From the IMG/VR virus record IMGVR_UViG_3300042387_001967: a stretch of 64,000 nucleotides of DNA, one strand, 5' to 3'. This stretch comes from a virus. A program made the translations under genes and the position numbers. Numbering within the stretch: the stretch's first letter is position 1; each line of letters begins with the position of its first letter. This document shows, piece after piece, positions 6,191 through 14,553 of the stretch. The notes beneath the pieces were generated by a model. The model saw only the letters and a program-made list of their open reading frames with translations, was not told the origin of the DNA and did no database searches.

Positions 6191-6405
6191 GGTTTTTTGG
6201 GTGTTGTGTGCCTGATGTAGTTGCTGTCGTCCACCACTTTCGGCGTGCCGTGCTGGCCTCCGATGTTCAGCACGAGGTGCGTCGGCAGGCTCATGACGAC
6301 CCGGCCCTTGCCACGTTGTCCTTGCGGGGTGGAGTAGTGGACGGTGGAACCGGGGGCGATGCTTCGCCACCACGGTTTGGTGGAGAGGATGTTGAGTGCG
6401 CTCAT
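6187..6405 (-). CDS. hypothetical protein
   Basis: MSALNILS...; ATGA overlaps at both ends. Confidence 0.65.
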   Translation of the reverse strand: MSALNILSTKPWWRSIAPGSTVHYSTPQGQRGKGRVVMSLPTHLVLNIGGQHGTPKVVDDSNYIRHTTPKKP

Positions 6406-6875
6406 TCGCGACGGTCTGATTTGATCCACTCCTCGATGGTGGCGAAACTGTCTCCCATTTGTTCCCCGAGCCAGTCCATTCTGTCGACCAGCAAACGGAA
6501 AACCAACCAGGCCGGCGGATCATCGCGGTCGATCCTGTAGACCAGCAATTCCGATCGATAATCATTGTCCAGTTGATCGATCTCGTGATGCACGTCGGCC
6601 TCTTCGTCCGATTCATCTTCAGTGTCGTCCAGCTCTTCCAGCAGCTCGGCTCTGCGATCGCTGATGCTCTCGGGGAAGATTGTCACCTCGACATACTCAG
6701 CGTCGAAGTCCACTTCGTAGCGACCAGTGGATGGTGAAACTTCGATATCGTCTGCTTCGATCCCGTGCTTCTTGAGTATTTTTGTAGCGGCCCGCTCGGC
6801 GAGCCACTCGAAGGCGTTGTTCCATAGGACCAGTTGCGCCGGAGTCAGGATGTCGGTGAATTTTATATTTTGCAT
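6402..6875 (-). CDS. hypothetical acidic protein
   Basis: MQNIKFTD...; A/C-rich leader. Confidence 0.7.
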   Translation of the reverse strand: MQNIKFTDILTPAQLVLWNNAFEWLAERAATKILKKHGIEADDIEVSPSTGRYEVDFDAEYVEVTIFPESISDRRAELLEELDDTEDESDEEADVHHEIDQLDNDYRSELLVYRIDRDDPPAWLVFRLLVDRMDWLGEQMGDSFATIEEWIKSDRRE

Positions 6876-6996
6876 AATGTTTCGTGTGAATTTATTTGCC
6901 TCCCTCGATGCTTGCGTCTCACCACTCCCCGTCAGGATACTCCATTTTGAGCGCACGCAGATAAGCGCAGAATCAACGCCCAGAAAGGCGCCGACG

Positions 6997-9900
6997 CTAT
7001 GAAGGCGAAATCTCTACGTCGTCGTAAAGGTCCACTTCTCCCCGTTCGATAGCAGCCATCACGTCGTCGTCCGATGTGAACTTGTGCTTCTTTTGTGGGC
7101 GATTGGCGGGACTCAACATGTTCAGCCCGAGCAAGGTCTCATGCTTGGGATTTGCCATCGTCTTGCTGCGGTCCTTGATGGACCAGAGCATCTTCGAAGC
7201 CATCATCTTCTCGCGCACGTCCCTGACCGCCTCGTCGGTGGTCGGCACGTGCACGCTCATGGTGTTTGAGAGGATCACGCCGTCGGCCGACATGAAGGTT
7301 TCGTAGCCTGGGACGGTGAGGTCGTAGCCGGTTTCGCGGATGCCTGTCTTGTCGACTTCGACGACAGTGGCCCAGGTGATGTGCTCCTGGTCCAGGATGT
7401 CGCGAACCCAAGTCTTGAGCAGGTCCGAGTCCAACGCGCCACGATACACCGGGAGAGCCTCCAGGCGTTCCAGCAGTCTGCGTCGGCGGAGTCCACCCAG
7501 CGCGTCGCCGGCGTGCGCCGCGGTTTTGATGATGGATGCCAACTTGTAAGTCTCAGACCCCTTGTCGTTGTCAGCGGAGAACGGCGCAGCGGTCGCGTAA
7601 ACGCCGGCCCGTAGAATCTTCGCATTCGCGGATGTCAGCTCCACCACCTCGGAACGCAGCAAGGTCAGCGCAGCGTCGCGAGCCGCGACACGCTTGGCGA
7701 GCATCTCGCGCAGATGATCCAAGACTGCGCGCGCGCTCGGACGCGAGATGACACCTTCGTGTTTCCCCTTGGCCCACTGCACGACCATATTCTGCTGGTG
7801 CTTCTTCCAGTCCAGCTCCGGGCTGTCAGTTGTGCGGTCTTCGGCGGTGATCTTGGGATTGACGAGGTCGTGCTGGACGACGTCGAAGACGTTGCGGGGT
7901 ATGACCGCCTTGTTGAACACCGCCGCTGTGTTCTCGCGGACTACTTCCGCTTTGAGGAAGTTCTCACGTTTGTGCTCGGTGGCCAGCCCGGCGAAGAGGT
8001 CTAGCCGCTTGCAGTCCCACGTGGACATTGCGAGCACCCAGCATTCATTCCCGCCGCTGGTTTCCTTCGACCACGTAACCGAAGCACGCACGTCCAGCGT
8101 CATGCAGAGTGCTTGCAGTTCACGAATGAGTCTCAGCGAAGTGGATCCGATGTTAAACACGTTCCCCTTCCCTTCCTCGCCGCCATTCCCGACACTGATG
8201 GATCCGTCGGTGTCCACCATGCCAGTCAGGAACCCACGTCGAAACTCCTCCGGCGCGCGGAACAGGAATCCGGGGACGCGCTTGTTCGCTGCTCCGGATG
8301 TTTTTTCGTCGCGCTCGCCGCCCAGGTGTAACTGCAGAAACGCAGCCACGTGCTCACTTCCGGCGAAGTTGAAGCTGTGCCTGATCGTATCGCCGTATCG
8401 AGCGTCTCCCTCTTCCTTATTCTGCTCGTGGCGGTGATAGTAGAGCGTTCCCGCAGAATCCAGATGCTGTTCGATGAAGGATTTCAGACGCTTTGCGTTG
8501 TCCTCCTTGAGATCGGCGAGATGAAGATTCCGACGCCCCTTCCAGCCGCGCGTAGCGTAGAAATCGTAGTCTTTCTTATCCCACCATCCGTCGCCGCACA
8601 TCGCGCCCATGAACCAGCCCGCGTCGAAGTCCAGGACGATCTGGACGCTGCCCATCTTCACTTCCGCGATCGGTTCCAGTGTTGCTACCAGTTCCCGTAG
8701 GTTTCTCCCGCACGGAACCGCAACCTTTTTCTCCAGCGCATCTGTCGGCGTCCAGCGTCCCATCTCGCCCGTCGTCGGGTCCATGCCGTAGACGGCCCGC
8801 GGGTCGTCATCGGTGAAGGTCTGCCGACGGTTGGACAATGTGACAACCTCGATCGGAGGCGCAGTGTGCTCGCTCCACCCGGCGACGTCGGCCCATACCA
8901 ACGCCCCAGTATTCTCGTCGAATGCGATGACCTTGGTTCCCGGTAGGGCTTTGAAGAACCTGATATAGCTGTTGGTGCCCTGCTTCTCTCCGATGAGTTC
9001 CTCGCTGCGCGGGAAGTCCTCGAGGTCGATCACAGCCACTTCGTGCGTGGTCGGATCAATGTAGGGTAGTTGAAGTTTGTTATACATATCAGCAGCATTG
9101 CCGAGAATCTGAAAGCGGTCAACCAAATATGACGGCAAGGATGAAATTAGGTCGCGCTGAATCGCTGTAACTACCTGATTATGAACTTCGTCCCCGTCAA
9201 AATCGGCGTTCATTCCCTCCGTGATGAAGGTGTTCACCCGAATCGCGTCACCTGGAACAATCCGGGGACGCTGTCCGATCACGTTCGTCCGGTGCCATGC
9301 CGGGGACCTGGTGATCACGACGGGCCGGCGCGGCGTCTCATGCCCCTCCTTGTCGGTCTCCGTGCCCATCTCGTAGTCCAGCGCCTTGCGCGCCATCGGC
9401 GAGCGGTCAGTCAGATGCTTGAGCGCGGCGGCCGGCGCCATGCCGGAACGCACCAGCCGCCGCTGCACGTAGTTGCTGTAGAGCTTCCACGCCATCTCCT
9501 CGGGGATGCCGACGTCGTCCATGCCCAGGTCGGCGTCAGGCACGATGACGCCGCGGCCGACCGTGTCGACCGGCTTGGACAGCATCTTGGAGGCGTAAAA
9601 ACTCGTTTTTGGATTCGTACCGGTGACCATCTTGAAGAACCCCTTCACCTCGCGCGCGCGGGTCTTGGGGTTCGGGCTCTCGCCGTAGCCGTAGGCAGCC
9701 TTGGCCGCGCGCGTCATGTCCATGTAGGCCTCCGCCGCGCCGTCGCGCCCCATCGCCTTCTCCGTGTCGCTGTAGAGCCGGCGATACTCGAGCAGGTCCC
9801 GGTAGACCTCGTTCGAGTCGCCCGGGAGGAACGTGTCGCCGGTAACGCTGAACGGGCGGAACTTCGGCGGGATGACCGGCACGGATGTGAGCATCATGTG

Positions 9901-10131
9901 CTCCGGCCTCAGCTCGTTGACGCGCAGCCCGTGCAGGATGTTCAGCATCCGCACCGCGCGGCTGCGCTTGGTCTTGCTGCCGGCGCGGATGATGTCGCGC
10001 TGTTCCTTTTCGATGTCGTCGATGTTCATCCCCTGCAGCGCTGCGAGGATCGCTTCAGGGCCTGTGGTCGGAGGCGTGGTCATGCGCAGGAGCCTAGCCT
10101 GCTGTCGGCGTCGTGTCGCGCGAAATGTCAC
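6997..10131 (-). CDS. rpoC: multisubunit RNA polymerase beta'-like catalytic fragment (intein-containing)
   Basis: GPEAILAAL...MMLTSVPVIPPKFRP, MLSKPVDTVGRGVIVPD, RSPAWHR, NADFDGD, and after the intein TMSVHVP align with bacterial RpoC; start could instead be ATG 10083. Confidence 0.92.
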   Translation of the reverse strand: MTFRATRRRQQARLLRMTTPPTTGPEAILAALQGMNIDDIEKEQRDIIRAGSKTKRSRAVRMLNILHGLRVNELRPEHMMLTSVPVIPPKFRPFSVTGDTFLPGDSNEVYRDLLEYRRLYSDTEKAMGRDGAAEAYMDMTRAAKAAYGYGESPNPKTRAREVKGFFKMVTGTNPKTSFYASKMLSKPVDTVGRGVIVPDADLGMDDVGIPEEMAWKLYSNYVQRRLVRSGMAPAAALKHLTDRSPMARKALDYEMGTETDKEGHETPRRPVVITRSPAWHRTNVIGQRPRIVPGDAIRVNTFITEGMNADFDGDEVHNQVVTAIQRDLISSLPSYLVDRFQILGNAADMYNKLQLPYIDPTTHEVAVIDLEDFPRSEELIGEKQGTNSYIRFFKALPGTKVIAFDENTGALVWADVAGWSEHTAPPIEVVTLSNRRQTFTDDDPRAVYGMDPTTGEMGRWTPTDALEKKVAVPCGRNLRELVATLEPIAEVKMGSVQIVLDFDAGWFMGAMCGDGWWDKKDYDFYATRGWKGRRNLHLADLKEDNAKRLKSFIEQHLDSAGTLYYHRHEQNKEEGDARYGDTIRHSFNFAGSEHVAAFLQLHLGGERDEKTSGAANKRVPGFLFRAPEEFRRGFLTGMVDTDGSISVGNGGEEGKGNVFNIGSTSLRLIRELQALCMTLDVRASVTWSKETSGGNECWVLAMSTWDCKRLDLFAGLATEHKRENFLKAEVVRENTAAVFNKAVIPRNVFDVVQHDLVNPKITAEDRTTDSPELDWKKHQQNMVVQWAKGKHEGVISRPSARAVLDHLREMLAKRVAARDAALTLLRSEVVELTSANAKILRAGVYATAAPFSADNDKGSETYKLASIIKTAAHAGDALGGLRRRRLLERLEALPVYRGALDSDLLKTWVRDILDQEHITWATVVEVDKTGIRETGYDLTVPGYETFMSADGVILSNTMSVHVPTTDEAVRDVREKMMASKMLWSIKDRSKTMANPKHETLLGLNMLSPANRPQKKHKFTSDDDVMAAIERGEVDLYDDVEISPS
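7264..9189 (-). mobile_element. intein with LAGLIDADG homing endonuclease (642 aa), atypical N-terminus
   Basis: In-frame insert between NADFDGD and TMSVHVP; LAGLIDADG-like blocks GWFMGAMCGDG and GFLTGMVDTDG; C-terminal YDLTVPGYETFMSADGVILSN followed by +1 Thr. Confidence 0.9.
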
Positions 10132-10156
10132 TCACCCGTCGCGCGCCGGCCGTCAT
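10094..10156 (-). CDS. 20-aa mini-ORF bridging accessory operon and beta' gene
   Basis: ATGA overlap with stop of 10153..10602; ends 10 nt before ATG 10083. Confidence 0.3.
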   Translation of the reverse strand: MTAGARRVSDISRDTTPTAG

Positions 10157-10602
10157 CGGACGTTGTTCTTCGCCGTCGCTTTCACGTCCAGGTCGATCTC
10201 GGTCCGTCCGTCCTGCAGTTCGCGACGTGTCAGTACGATGCCGCAGCCCTCCATCCAGTGGAACAGCGGCACTGCATTCGCGCGCGTGGTGATGATTTTG
10301 CTGTCGCATCCCTTCAGGAATCCACGGGACAGGAAGATCGGGCCGTCGCATTTCAGCGCCTTCAGCACAGTGGTCGACAGTTCCACCGCGGTGGCCACCT
10401 GGTCGTAGGTCAGGTGCGGCTCAGGCAGACGACGCAGCGTGGACGGCCACCAAGGCCACCGCCACCACCATCGCAGTTCGCGCACGCCGCCGTCCACTAG
10501 GACGAACGGGCGGCCCTTGCCATACATGCGCCAGACTGGGTCGCCGGCTTTGGTCCTGGCGATCATGTGCCAGCTTTCCGTAGGGTCAGGGTTGTTTTTC
10601 AT
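10153..10602 (-). CDS. hypothetical protein
   Basis: 149-aa ORF, ATGA overlap. Confidence 0.65.
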   Translation of the reverse strand: MKNNPDPTESWHMIARTKAGDPVWRMYGKGRPFVLVDGGVRELRWWWRWPWWPSTLRRLPEPHLTYDQVATAVELSTTVLKALKCDGPIFLSRGFLKGCDSKIITTRANAVPLFHWMEGCGIVLTRRELQDGRTEIDLDVKATAKNNVR

Positions 10603-10835
10603 GCTTCGATTTTTTCGAGGAACGCGACGATGTCGTCGATGGTTTTGAAGAAACGCTCTTCGTCCTCGGATATGATGATGTCGTATTCATCCTCGAAGGC
10701 CATGAGGACGTCCACGTCGTCGTGCTCGTCAATTCCGATGTCGGTCAGCTTGTTGACTTTCGCGACGGCGGCTTCGGACTCGCCGGTGAACTCGCTCAGG
10801 ATTCTGATGGCGTCGGTGCGGTAGTTTTTTGTCAT
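10599..10835 (-). CDS. acyl carrier protein homologue lacking the Ppant serine (DSL->DEH)
   Basis: DIGIDEHDDVDVLMAFEDEYDIIISEDEERFFKTI aligns without gaps to E. coli AcpP [35 protein letters not shown]; alternative GTG start at 10898. Confidence 0.8.
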   Translation of the reverse strand: MTKNYRTDAIRILSEFTGESEAAVAKVNKLTDIGIDEHDDVDVLMAFEDEYDIIISEDEERFFKTIDDIVAFLEKIEA

Positions 10836-10894
10836 TGTGATGGTATTGTTGCGGCGGTCAACGCCGACAGTTTGAATTTCACCCACTCGCAGCG

Positions 10895-11134
10895 TCACCA
10901 GGTCTCCTCCCCTGTCGCGTCCGCTTCGAGGCGCGCAATCTTCGTGAGCTTGCGCAGCCTCTTGCGCTTCGCCGAGGCTTCCGGCCCCCTTTCGCAAAAC
11001 CCGACGTTCAGCCCGGTGGCGATCAATTTCTGACGCAAGACGGCGTCGTTCAGATCGTCCGTAGCATGAGGCACCCATCCCTTCGCCATTTTGCGGCCGT
11101 TCTTGTCGCGTGGAACGCTGCGTTTCGTCGTCAT
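10895..11134 (-). CDS. hypothetical basic protein
   Basis: MTTKRSVP...; ATGA overlap. Confidence 0.6.
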   Translation of the reverse strand: MTTKRSVPRDKNGRKMAKGWVPHATDDLNDAVLRQKLIATGLNVGFCERGPEASAKRKRLRKLTKIARLEADATGEETW

Positions 11135-11958
11135 ACCTCCTCCCCCGGCGCCAGCACCCGCACGACCTTGAACGAGTTCACGCAGAACCCATACTCGTCG
11201 GACAGCCAGTCCGACACCGCGCTGTCGTCCGCCATCGCATCCTCCATGCCCGTCTCCACGTCCCACAGACGCACGACGACCTGCTTGGGCGGGTCGACCA
11301 CATCAACTCCATCGGGGTTCGGGTCGTCGCCATCGTTCGTCAGATCCCAGTCCACTTCGAGCAGGACGCGCGGACTCTCATCCGGGTCCTGTACCTGGAT
11401 GACCCAGTCCGGGTTCTCCGCCGGCTTCCCGGTGATGATGTAGTAGAGCCGGTTGACGAAGTGCATACCGTTCACGATGCAGAACTCCCCGTCGTCGTCA
11501 TCCATCGCCGTCCAAACACGGTTCTCTTTGACCGCTTCGTTGAGGGCGCGCAGGTCGTCCGCATCAGTCCAGTCGCGCTGTCGGACGCCGTCGCCTTCCG
11601 GGGTCTGCTCCGGGCGGTAACGCGCGATGAACTGGTCATCGGTCAGATGCAGCAGCAGCCCGTGCATCGGCTCGGCCGGCCCCAGCCTCATGCGCAGCAG
11701 TGCCAGGACGTCGTTGCCGCATGCGTCGATGAGCTGGATGTCCACGCCGAACTCCTTGTAGATGTCACGACTCGCCGTCGTGATGTCGATTGCGTCCAGC
11801 CGGAGGCTGCTCTTGATGTCGGCTGACAAGTCGATCCGATCGATGTCGTCTTTCCTCCTGATGTTCGCCGCGACGGCGAGGATTTCGCGCAGTTTGTGCG
11901 CGCGTGGGTCGAGTGTAGTCATTGTGGTTTTGGTAGTCATTGTGGTTTTGGTGCTCAT
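11131..11958 (-). CDS. multi-module protein with N-terminal ACP-like domain (DSL->DAI)
   Basis: IDLSADIKSSLRLDAIDITTASRDIYKEFGVDI keeps the ACP spacing A-x5-L-x2-D-[S]-x-D-x10-E-F-x3-I; acidic C-terminal modules. Confidence 0.6.
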   Translation of the reverse strand: MSTKTTMTTKTTMTTLDPRAHKLREILAVAANIRRKDDIDRIDLSADIKSSLRLDAIDITTASRDIYKEFGVDIQLIDACGNDVLALLRMRLGPAEPMHGLLLHLTDDQFIARYRPEQTPEGDGVRQRDWTDADDLRALNEAVKENRVWTAMDDDDGEFCIVNGMHFVNRLYYIITGKPAENPDWVIQVQDPDESPRVLLEVDWDLTNDGDDPNPDGVDVVDPPKQVVVRLWDVETGMEDAMADDSAVSDWLSDEYGFCVNSFKVVRVLAPGEEV

Positions 11959-12236
11959 GCTCCGTAGGGTGTGATGGCCAGAACGCATTCACGCCCGCCG
12001 ATCAGGACGGTCTCCAGTTTGCTGCCGCACATATTTTCCAGGTTCTCCAACCAGTAGTTCCAGTCGTCGTTGACCGCTTCGTGGACAGCTCCGCGGACGG
12101 CTCCTCCTGCAACGACTTCGACAGCCTCCACGTGGAAGCTCTTCCCGGCGATGCTGATTACGCTCTTCCAGTAATGCGGCACGCACTCCCGCATTTCGAG
12201 CTCTTCGTTCCCGATGATGATTGTGGCCGTGTTCAT
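11955..12236 (-). CDS. hypothetical protein
   Basis: MNTATIII...; overlaps neighbours. Confidence 0.65.
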   Translation of the reverse strand: MNTATIIIGNEELEMRECVPHYWKSVISIAGKSFHVEAVEVVAGGAVRGAVHEAVNDDWNYWLENLENMCGSKLETVLIGGRECVLAITPYGA

Positions 12237-12720: not shown

Positions 12721-12922
12721 GTCGCACGAAGTCGCAGTCCTTCAACGCGAATTGTTTCATCTGACCGTCCTCGGTGTCCACGGCTTCGAGCAGCCACTGG
12801 TCCTCCGGGTGCCACTCTGTGCGGCCCCAAAAGATGCGCACCGGACGGATTTCCCGGCATCGCTCGACGCCGCGCCAGTTTCGGTAGCACACCGGCAGTG
12901 TGGCCGGCTCACCAGTCTCCAT
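12716..12922 (-). CDS. stand-alone WYL-like domain protein
   Basis: YRNWRGVERCREIRPVRIFWG...QWLLEA...KQFAL follows the WYL pattern Y..G..R.I.P......W[YL]L.A......F. Confidence 0.65.
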   Translation of the reverse strand: METGEPATLPVCYRNWRGVERCREIRPVRIFWGRTEWHPEDQWLLEAVDTEDGQMKQFALKDCDFVRR

Positions 12923-13073
12923 CGGGATACTCCTGCCGGGCACTTGCCCAGCGCGCGCGCTCCTCGAATGTGGTCTCTCGTTTGTGCTCGCTCAGTGCGC
13001 CGTTCGGGTTCGCCAGCCAGCTGCGCAGAGCTTCCCTCTCTGCACAATCCAACTTCACGATGTGCTCGTTCAT
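12909..13073 (-). CDS. hypothetical protein
   Basis: MNEHIVKL...; ATGA overlap. Confidence 0.5.
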   Translation of the reverse strand: MNEHIVKLDCAEREALRSWLANPNGALSEHKRETTFEERARWASARQEYPDGDW

Positions 13074-13660
13074 GCCTTCACCTCCGCCAGCTCGTTCATG
13101 ATCAGCAGCTGCCCGTGGTGCTCGTAGGGCGTCCACTGGCAGCCCTCCGGCAGCTTGCCGGCCAGCGTCGTCATCGCCCCATACCACGTCTCGCCGATGT
13201 CCGTGTGCGCCCGCAGCGCCCGGTAGAACGTCGGCAGGCCGGCGCGGTAGCCACGCCACACCCTGGTCGGATGCCAGAAGCCGGCGCTGCCGCGTCGCAG
13301 GATGGGCCCCAGCGCCGCCAGCAGCTCCTCGTGCGTCAGGTCGTTGCCCTCGTTGTCGTCGCCCCAGATGAACAGCCGCTCCGGGTAGAACGCGGATGAC
13401 TCGTTGTCGCCACTGATCAGTGGTCGCCCGTTGCGCATCCCTTCCGAGAGGAACGCGTAGTGATGCTCCTTGGCGTCGTCGTCGACCCGCCACCCGTAGG
13501 GCGTGGCGATGCCGGCCGCGATGCGATCGGGCCTGCCCTTGATGGGGAACACGTGGTCGCCCTGTGACGTAGTCACTCCCTTGGGCGGCATGTCCGTCGA
13601 CAGGTTGTACATGGACTGCATGAAGCCCCACATGGCTCCGCTGAGCTGAATTACTTTCAT
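13070..13660 (-). CDS. hypothetical protein
   Basis: 196-aa ORF, overlaps both neighbours. Confidence 0.7.
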   Translation of the reverse strand: MKVIQLSGAMWGFMQSMYNLSTDMPPKGVTTSQGDHVFPIKGRPDRIAAGIATPYGWRVDDDAKEHHYAFLSEGMRNGRPLISGDNESSAFYPERLFIWGDDNEGNDLTHEELLAALGPILRRGSAGFWHPTRVWRGYRAGLPTFYRALRAHTDIGETWYGAMTTLAGKLPEGCQWTPYEHHGQLLIMNELAEVKA

Positions 13661-14553
13661 TGCTGTGTTGGGTTGTCGAGTTCGCGTTCACGTTTGCGCA
13701 AGATCTTCCGCAACTTGAGAGACGCTTCGTTTTGGATCTGCCTGATGCGCTCCCGTGTGAGGCCAACCTTTGTCCCGACCTCATCGAGCGAGAATCCATC
13801 AGCGCGCATCCGTATTATGAGACGTGCGCGCGCGTCGAGTTCGGACAGGCTCTCCTCCAGCAATTCCAGCGCTACAGGCTCCCGATACTCCTCCGCTGCT
13901 ACGTCTCTGGCGGCACGCAGCGGGCGGGCGAATGTGAGCGGTCCTTCCGGGAGTTCGCCTGACACGATGCGGGTATGAGTTCTGATGCGTTCCTGAGCGC
14001 GGTCTGGAGTCAGTCGTCCATCGGGACAGCATTCGCGACAGATGAACATACCAACACGCTGGCTCTTTCCGCGGCTATGGCCCTTGCTGCGGGGTCCGTG
14101 GATGATGACTCCGTTCTTGACCGGCACTCCAGTCGCGCGCACCTCGCAGTAAGCGCACTTGAGACCCCTATTTGCTGGAGGCCTGCCTTCAGCGATGGGC
14201 TTTTCGCGGCGTTTTGCGGCTGCAGCCAGGCCGCTCTCGGACTGGTTGTATCGACGCGTGTACTCGGGGTTTCGTTTACCGTTGATCCTAGAAGGTATGC
14301 CGTATTTCAACGGTTGGCGCATTCTCGCATTTGGATGCTTCTTGCGGTAATACCAGCGCTGATATGCGGGATTCTGCTTACCGTCGACCAGGCAGGGAGG
14401 AGCACCTTCGGCGCGTGGCTTGCGAGGTTTGACTCCGAGGACATTACGAGCATACCAGACATGGTAGGCTGGATTCCCGCGCCCATCTGGAAGCTTGCTT
14501 TTCGGTTTCTCGTTGGCTGCGTTCGTGCTCATGTCTGACGTTGATGCGATCAT
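13657..14553 (-). CDS. sigma70 region-4 HTH protein with N-terminal NPxY repeats and Cys cluster
   Basis: C-terminal FSLDEVGTKVGLTRERIRQIQNEASLKLRK; three [DN]GxxNPxY repeats; CAYC...CREC. Confidence 0.75.
   Translation of the reverse strand: MIASTSDMSTNAANEKPKSKLPDGRGNPAYHVWYARNVLGVKPRKPRAEGAPPCLVDGKQNPAYQRWYYRKKHPNARMRQPLKYGIPSRINGKRNPEYTRRYNQSESGLAAAAKRREKPIAEGRPPANRGLKCAYCEVRATGVPVKNGVIIHGPRSKGHSRGKSQRVGMFICRECCPDGRLTPDRAQERIRTHTRIVSGELPEGPLTFARPLRAARDVAAEEYREPVALELLEESLSELDARARLIIRMRADGFSLDEVGTKVGLTRERIRQIQNEASLKLRKILRKRERELDNPTQQ

Follow-up and report, generated by a model that had tools for sequence, protein, structure and literature searches.

We found that an uncultured freshwater phage of ~185 kb, represented here by a 64,000-nucleotide stretch of DNA (the window), encodes what is by its sequence a genuine and firm homolog of the acyl carrier protein (ACP), with a match far beyond chance, in which the serine of the phosphopantetheine attachment site is missing. 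A second ACP-like domain, encoded by a linked gene of the same phage, lacks this serine as well. We believe that the first protein, P0001, is best read as a carrier-dead ACP that has been retained as a cofactor-independent protein-binding adaptor or subunit, a reading to which we assign a probability of roughly 0.5. The gene and its former attachment site are located as follows.

10599-10835, minus strand: serine-less ACP homolog P0001, 78 aa, pI 4.1 (profile, hhalign, BLASTP, HMM)
10719-10742, minus strand: DIGIDEHD, standing where ACPs have DLGADSLD (BLASTP, alignments)

BLASTP aligns P0001 with E. coli K-12 AcpP (NC_000913) without gaps over residues 32-78 of both proteins (E 2e-6), placing DIGIDEHDD exactly on DLGADSLDT, and a profile built from P0001 and its four closest relatives puts the same residues on DLGADSLD when it is compared with ACP chains from the PDB (E 1e-6). 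The homology to the ACP superfamily (PF00550/TIGR00517) covers the full length of the protein, as seen when the P0001 clade is aligned with 54 canonical ACPs using hhalign (99.65% probability, E 4.5e-25). An HMM built solely from canonical ACPs gives P0001 68.8 bits, and no other ORF in the six-frame translation of the window scores with it. PHROG 5934 ("acyl carrier protein") matches P0001 at E 5e-7, and the NCBIfam ACP models do so at E 1.7e-8, with a best score of 34.4 bits that lies below their curated cut-offs of 66-106; the Pfam PP-binding family PF00550 is not among the matches at E<=1, and a match to Pfam DUF6137 (E 0.011) falls under its cut-off. ESM Atlas features group P0001 with ACP clusters (score 0.91). 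No match was returned by tblastn of P0001 against 50,697 phage records or by megablast of the P0001 region, and PADLOC gave no credible one. The AF2 model, computed from a shallow clade alignment of 5 sequences, contains four helices at a pLDDT of 52.6, and Foldseek returned noise matches only for this low-confidence model; by homology, P0001 would adopt the four-helix ACP fold.

P0001 resembles ACPs in charge as well. It contains 22 Asp and Glu residues vs 8 Lys and Arg, giving the pI of 4.1, and the 30 residues starting at DIG include 14 acidic residues and 1 basic residue, vs 13 and 0 in E. coli AcpP. In other words, P0001 has the acidic recognition helix II that is characteristic of ACPs. 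A preliminary description of this DNA had proposed a gapless match to AcpP helices II-III, with DIGIDEHD in place of DLGADSLD, in a highly acidic protein with an ACP-like docking face on helices II/III, and these comparisons bear out each of these points.

At the attachment site itself, the serine of the ACP D-S-L motif is replaced by Glu37 (codon GAG, 10725-10727), and Ser, Thr and Cys are all absent at or adjoining the start of helix II. Since no such residue is present there, neither AcpS nor Sfp would be expected to modify P0001, which should be unable to carry acyl groups, in agreement with the earlier prediction that it is non-modifiable. The absence of serine extends to every one of the ~11 distinct sequences of the P0001 clade, in which the site is Glu, Ala or a deletion of three residues. 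Specifically, D-E-H is found in the window, in P0002 and at loci L004/L005, D-E-R at loci L006/L007, and D-A-H or D-A-R in the P0003 cluster, while P0004 and P0005 have lost the Asp36-Glu37-His38 segment; except where this segment is deleted, position 37 is thus Glu or Ala and position 38 His or Arg. The Ser-to-Glu replacement previously described for this protein therefore stands insofar as Ser is absent clade-wide, and falls insofar as Glu is not fixed. Indeed, the attachment loop is among the most variable spots of the clade, whereas helices II-IV are almost invariant: alignment A1 comprises five proteins, and 59 of the 78 positions are invariant among them, those of the hydrophobic core and of the acidic helices included. 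The three-residue deletion (window 10725-10733) was observed on both sublineage backgrounds (P0004, P0005), and the GAC repeats that flank it in the DNA suggest recurrent slippage or recombination. We rejected the idea of a designed phospho-mimic in which Glu37 imitates the phosphodiester, since in relatives this residue is Ala or deleted.

Searching 1.84 billion representatives exhaustively with HMMER, we obtained 390 relatives of P0001 at E<=0.001. Nearly all single-domain matches among the aligned relatives contain D-S-[LIM]-D, and the nearest sequence outside the P0001 clade, P0007 (E 5e-13), retains the serine (GLDSLD), as does each of the 81 ACP matches from the 80 best-matching loci of IMG/VR. 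Because P0007 and these 81 sampled ACPs keep Ser, its loss in the P0001 clade is, judged from the alignments, derived and unusual, with Glu itself not the selected feature. A consistent loss of Ser among phage ACPs, as the preliminary description had suggested looking for, is thus found throughout the P0001 clade but not in the wider IMG/VR sample. Asp or Glu occupies the site in 7 of ~125 remote ACP representatives (P0023, P0040, P0041, P0068, P0077, P0085 and P0142), all on contigs of 1-6 kb only. As a separate observation, two metagenome proteins (P0011, P0020) contain three tandem ACP domains, the first two with DSLD and the third with DLEMDEVD or DLGMDDLI, so that here, too, an acidic residue stands in for Ser.

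The second serine-less ACP domain is part of a larger protein, p285, encoded upstream of P0001 on the same strand.

11131-11988, minus strand: p285, 285 aa; its N-terminal domain is ACP-like and is followed by a conserved core and an alpha/beta domain at the C-terminus
11689-11910, minus strand: ACP-like domain of p285, motif LRLDAID (family alignment and profile)
11389-11682, minus strand: conserved ~100-aa core of p285, LTDDQFIARY...YRQRDW...WTA.DDD.G.F.I.SG.H.VNRLYYIIT

On its own, p285 gives a weak PP-binding match in Pfam (E 0.015); at the level of its family, 12 of the 36 sequences of alignment A3 match PF00550, and the family profile matches PDB ACPs at E 4e-10. Ala66 (codon 11791-11793) stands at the serine position, and all of the window clade of p285 (LRLDAID, LWLDAID or LQMDATD) has Ala there. 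Distant relatives have DLGMDSLD, LGLDSLD or similar, with D-S-[LM]-D in ~10 distant members (P0158-P0163, P0165, P0206, P0207, P0209), and P0164 has Ile at the serine position. The core occurs fused to an ACP, fused to another N-terminal domain, or as stand-alone proteins of ~105-125 aa on other large phage-sized contigs. Its AF2 model is confident (pLDDT above 90 for most of it) and has no fold match in the PDB, making the core a conserved, ACP-linked phage protein family with a confident model and no known fold. The C-terminal part of p285 found no match by tblastn in the 50,697 phage records, and scans of IMG/VR with the p285 family (A2, A7) found only the sister record G001. This record covers 127 kb, or about 68% of the genome, and starts at window 11253, so that it does not include the P0001 gene; within these 127 kb, we found neither a PF01648 transferase nor another ACP. 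A complex prediction for P0001 with the C-terminal part of p285, run without controls, scored 0.00, which speaks neither for nor against binding.

P0001 and p285 lie in a compact run of genes, whose members are listed below together with the intervening spacer.

10153-10602, minus strand: p149, whose ATG overlaps the P0001 stop (ATGA)
10836-10894, minus strand: 59-nt spacer, without a Shine-Dalgarno sequence before ATG 10835
10895-11134, minus strand: p79, a small basic 79-aa ORF inserted between the p285 and P0001 genes
6997-10131, minus strand: N-terminal piece of RNA polymerase beta' with an intein, directly downstream
13657-14553, minus strand: protein with sigma-70 region 4, upstream

The order p110-p285-ACP-p149-beta' is common to five metagenome loci at about 95% identity. 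Searches of Pfam, PHROG, NCBIfam and PADLOC found no family match for p149, which is conserved and syntenic in L004-L006 and L008 (the L007 contig stops after its first 20 codons). No family match was found for p79 either. L004-L007 do not have this gene; in these loci, the stop codon of p285 and the start codon of the ACP gene overlap (ATGA, in GTATGA). The P0001 ATG lacks a Shine-Dalgarno sequence in the window because p79 was inserted at this junction. An in-frame GTG (10896-10898) that overlaps the p79 stop, behind GGAGGAG, could serve as an alternative start and would add 21 residues to P0001; this extension is not conserved. The junction between the p285 and ACP genes appears as a hot spot for small inserted genes (window 10836-11134, L008:235-708): the insert in L008, with an ORF of ~148 aa, differs from the 79-aa ORF of the window, L004-L007 have none, and, at the DNA level, the spacer of the window is similar to the 3' end of the insert in L008. 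A second lineage at 84-85% identity (the P0003 cluster) is represented by dozens of contigs in which the ACP ORF is always full-length. The longest contigs of the P0003 ACP cluster and of the P0157 p285 cluster have the same sizes (187,375 and 38,403 bp); therefore, both serine-less genes travel together in the second lineage too.

More generally, the window has 61% G+C and nearly all of its genes lie on the minus strand. Other genes in it encode the pieces of a split RNA polymerase, one of them intein-bearing, as well as an NAD-dependent DNA ligase and a C5 DNA methylase. The beta piece shares ~30% identity with its counterpart in Salmonella phage Arash, which has the nearest RNA polymerase. 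Several differences between loci were noted in this region. The beta' intein (window 7266-9189) is polymorphic, being absent in L004/L005, where 9190 is joined to 7265, and present in L006/L008. A segment of variable length separates the WYL-like gene from the 196-aa gene (12898-13091), with ~195 bp in the window and ~1455 bp in L006/L007 (long version at L006:4790-6243). Finally, window 6373-7137, downstream of the beta' gene, aligns throughout with L004 and shows no DNA-level alignment with L006 or L008, and looks like replaced or highly diverged sequence.

How could two linked carriers have come to lack their serines? Both have relatives that bear Ser and both are without it, so that loss of a shared carrier chemistry is the simplest cause. 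To us, the joint loss looks like the loss of a phage-encoded carrier pathway and not like the purpose-built mimicry that had been suggested for P0001. Nevertheless, the ORF of P0001 is intact in all ~11 distinct alleles, which span two sublineages at 84-95% identity and dozens of contigs, and the only indel in the clade is in frame; the serine has been lost while the protein has stayed conserved and intact, as in the mitochondrial ACP (mACP) of apicomplexans. For the p285 gene, pN/pS is ~0.3. For the ACP gene, pN/pS among 95%-identical alleles is 0.5-1.0, derived from 1-2 synonymous and 3-4 non-synonymous changes, counts that are too few to demonstrate purifying selection at the DNA level. Since both genes are intact and are conserved outside the old attachment loop, P0001 has most likely been retained for a cofactor-independent role.

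We therefore propose the following scenario. P0001 would be a four-helix ACP protein that kept the acidic docking surface of helices II/III, and that, for want of a residue to be loaded by a phosphopantetheinyl transferase, would not carry acyl groups. It would form one half of a two-ACP phage module, with the ACP domain of p285, fused to the core without a PDB fold match, as the other half. The phage lineage would have lost Ser from both carriers, and with it their shared carrier chemistry, and P0001 would have been kept as a protein-binding adaptor or subunit, as the apicomplexan mitochondrial ACP is, probably being co-produced with p285 and p149 via overlapping stop and start codons. Both the binding of a partner and the choice of that partner are what we infer here. 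Several observations speak against this reading: the attachment loop tolerates substitutions and an indel, as the loop of a decaying gene would; the inserted gene in the window removed the Shine-Dalgarno sequence of P0001; the pN/pS of the ACP gene does not demonstrate purifying selection; the AF2 model of P0001 is of low confidence; and the p285 core matches no known fold.

Among the alternatives, a host-directed decoy is possible, although we consider it doubtful. Here, P0001 would mimic apo-ACP and dock through its acidic helix II on host enzymes that recognize ACP (for instance PlsB, AcpS and Fab enzymes, and also LpxA/LpxD in the case of a Gram-negative host), slowing host lipid synthesis or blocking an ACP-dependent host factor. 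The gapless alignment and the AcpP-like acidity of helices II-III are consistent with this, as is the fact that ACP look-alikes in which an acidic residue has taken the place of the serine recur in unrelated phages, namely DLGGDDLD in Salmonella phage Vi01 and the 7 of ~125 remote representatives mentioned above. According to a review, glycerol-3-phosphate acyltransferase is strongly inhibited by apo-ACP, more so than by holo-ACP (PMC3896788), which keeps the lipid-synthesis part of the original proposal plausible for PlsB or AcpS. The same review states that SpoT does not bind apo-ACP (PMC3896788), which argues against the titration of SpoT that had also been proposed. Further against a decoy, the linked ACP domain of p285 is likewise without serine but is not acidic, so that it is no mimic; the joint loss of Ser fits pathway loss better; Glu is not fixed at the site; and P0001 is encoded in an operon together with phage proteins, next to RNA polymerase genes and not among recognizable host-takeover genes. 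If the target were nonetheless a host ACP-client enzyme, P0001 would represent a new kind of phage host-takeover protein and a natural probe for ACP-dependent pathways.

A broader and rather unlikely version of this idea is that the two carrier-dead modules and the p285 core together make up a viral device that exploits the ACP docking surface, either jamming host ACP-client enzymes or hijacking an ACP-binding host factor. When jamming, a permanent apo-ACP would block PlsB or AcpS and shut down host membrane synthesis. Viral ACP mimicry would then be a recurrent host-takeover strategy, independently evolved here and in Vi01-like phages.

It is also conceivable, though improbable in our view, that an ACP-dependent pathway was lost and that both ACP modules are drifting towards functionless pseudogenes. 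The absence of Ser from both modules, the variable attachment loop with its indel, the pN/pS near 0.5-1 from tiny counts, the ribosome-binding site removed by the insertion in the window, and the lack of a transferase match in G001 all agree with decay. Against it stand the reading frames that remain intact across both sublineages, the invariance of the hydrophobic core and the acidic helices, the fact that the sole indel is in frame, and the pN/pS of the p285 gene.

Considering that P0001 is very acidic and that its gene has the same orientation as those of the sigma-region-4 protein (13657-14553) and the beta' piece (6997-10131), between which it lies, P0001 could alternatively assist in transcription or anti-restriction as an accessory factor built on a reused ACP scaffold, either as a DNA or RNA mimic or as a partner of the split phage RNA polymerase or sigma-like protein. 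We regard this as quite improbable, given that position is its sole basis and that the Pfam, PHROG and PADLOC searches did not relate P0001 to any known DNA mimic or protein that binds RNA polymerase. Moreover, the paper on Arash mentions no ACP (PMC10585845), and tblastn of P0001 and P0007 finds no match in that phage.

That P0001 could still be a carrier, with another prosthetic group or with loading at some residue other than the canonical one, is in our view highly improbable: this has no direct support, Ser, Thr and Cys are all missing at and next to the helix II start, L006 and L007 have Tyr in place of Ser56, the clade-conserved Ser14 lies in helix I, which to our knowledge is not used by known transferases (AcpS/Sfp recognition), and G001 contains no transferase gene that we could find.

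Retention of P0001 as a carrier-dead binding module would matter in two respects. In databases, genes of this kind bear the name "acyl carrier protein" and are classed with the auxiliary genes of lipid metabolism, while P0001 should be incapable of carrying anything. In addition, independent losses of Ser in phages, here in two linked modules whose relatives bear Ser, would mean that cofactor-independent binding is a use to which the ACP scaffold has been put repeatedly.

Among known systems, P0001 is close to the bacterial type II ACP, in particular its apo form, as represented by E. coli AcpP (PF00550/TIGR00517), with which it shares its length of 78 aa, the gapless helices II-IV, the D-x-G-x-D...D frame, the acidic recognition helix and a pI of about 4. 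It differs from AcpP in having Glu37 instead of the phosphopantetheine serine and in scoring under the curated cut-offs, and from bacterial ACPs in general in being phage-encoded, with no Fab genes nearby. Canonical phage ACPs (PHROG 5934) belong to the same broad family, and the nearest Ser-bearing relative, P0007, matches the ACPs of Burkholderia phage BCSR5, Ralstonia phages RP13/phiRSL1 and Cronobacter phage GAP32; however, the sampled IMG/VR relatives all have the serine, and the P0001 clade has none.

Closer in this respect are the ACP look-alikes of Vi01-like Ackermannviridae, which are small phage ACP homologs with an acidic residue at the serine position; gp186 of phage Sajous1 has been described as a "putative acyl carrier protein" (PMC10892097). 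In Vi01, the canonical-ACP model finds a single ORF (E 1.6e-9), in which DLGGDDLD has Asp at the serine position.

NC_015296.1 80703-80795 (L121:1501-1593), minus strand: ACP-like ORF of Vi01 with DLGGDDLD

Unlike in these look-alikes, the acidic residue is not fixed in the P0001 clade, and P0001 is paired with a second serine-less ACP domain. P0001 is not orthologous to them, as tblastn against the phage collection gave no match, and because P0001 has a Ser-bearing sister in P0007, its loss of Ser would be independent of theirs.

Serine-less ACPs have been held to be almost confined to apicomplexan mitochondria (PMC8547962). The mACP of Plasmodium falciparum, with Phe in place of Ser, is an essential serine-less ACP that acts as a binding subunit (PMC8547962). 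Its organism and lineage are unrelated to the P0001 phage, and its Phe113 lies in the interface with the LYR protein Isd11 (PMC8547962), whereas the replacement in P0001 is variable. What the two have in common is that the serine was lost and the protein retained, apicomplexan mACP having also lost the local fatty-acid pathway and its transferase (PMC8547962).
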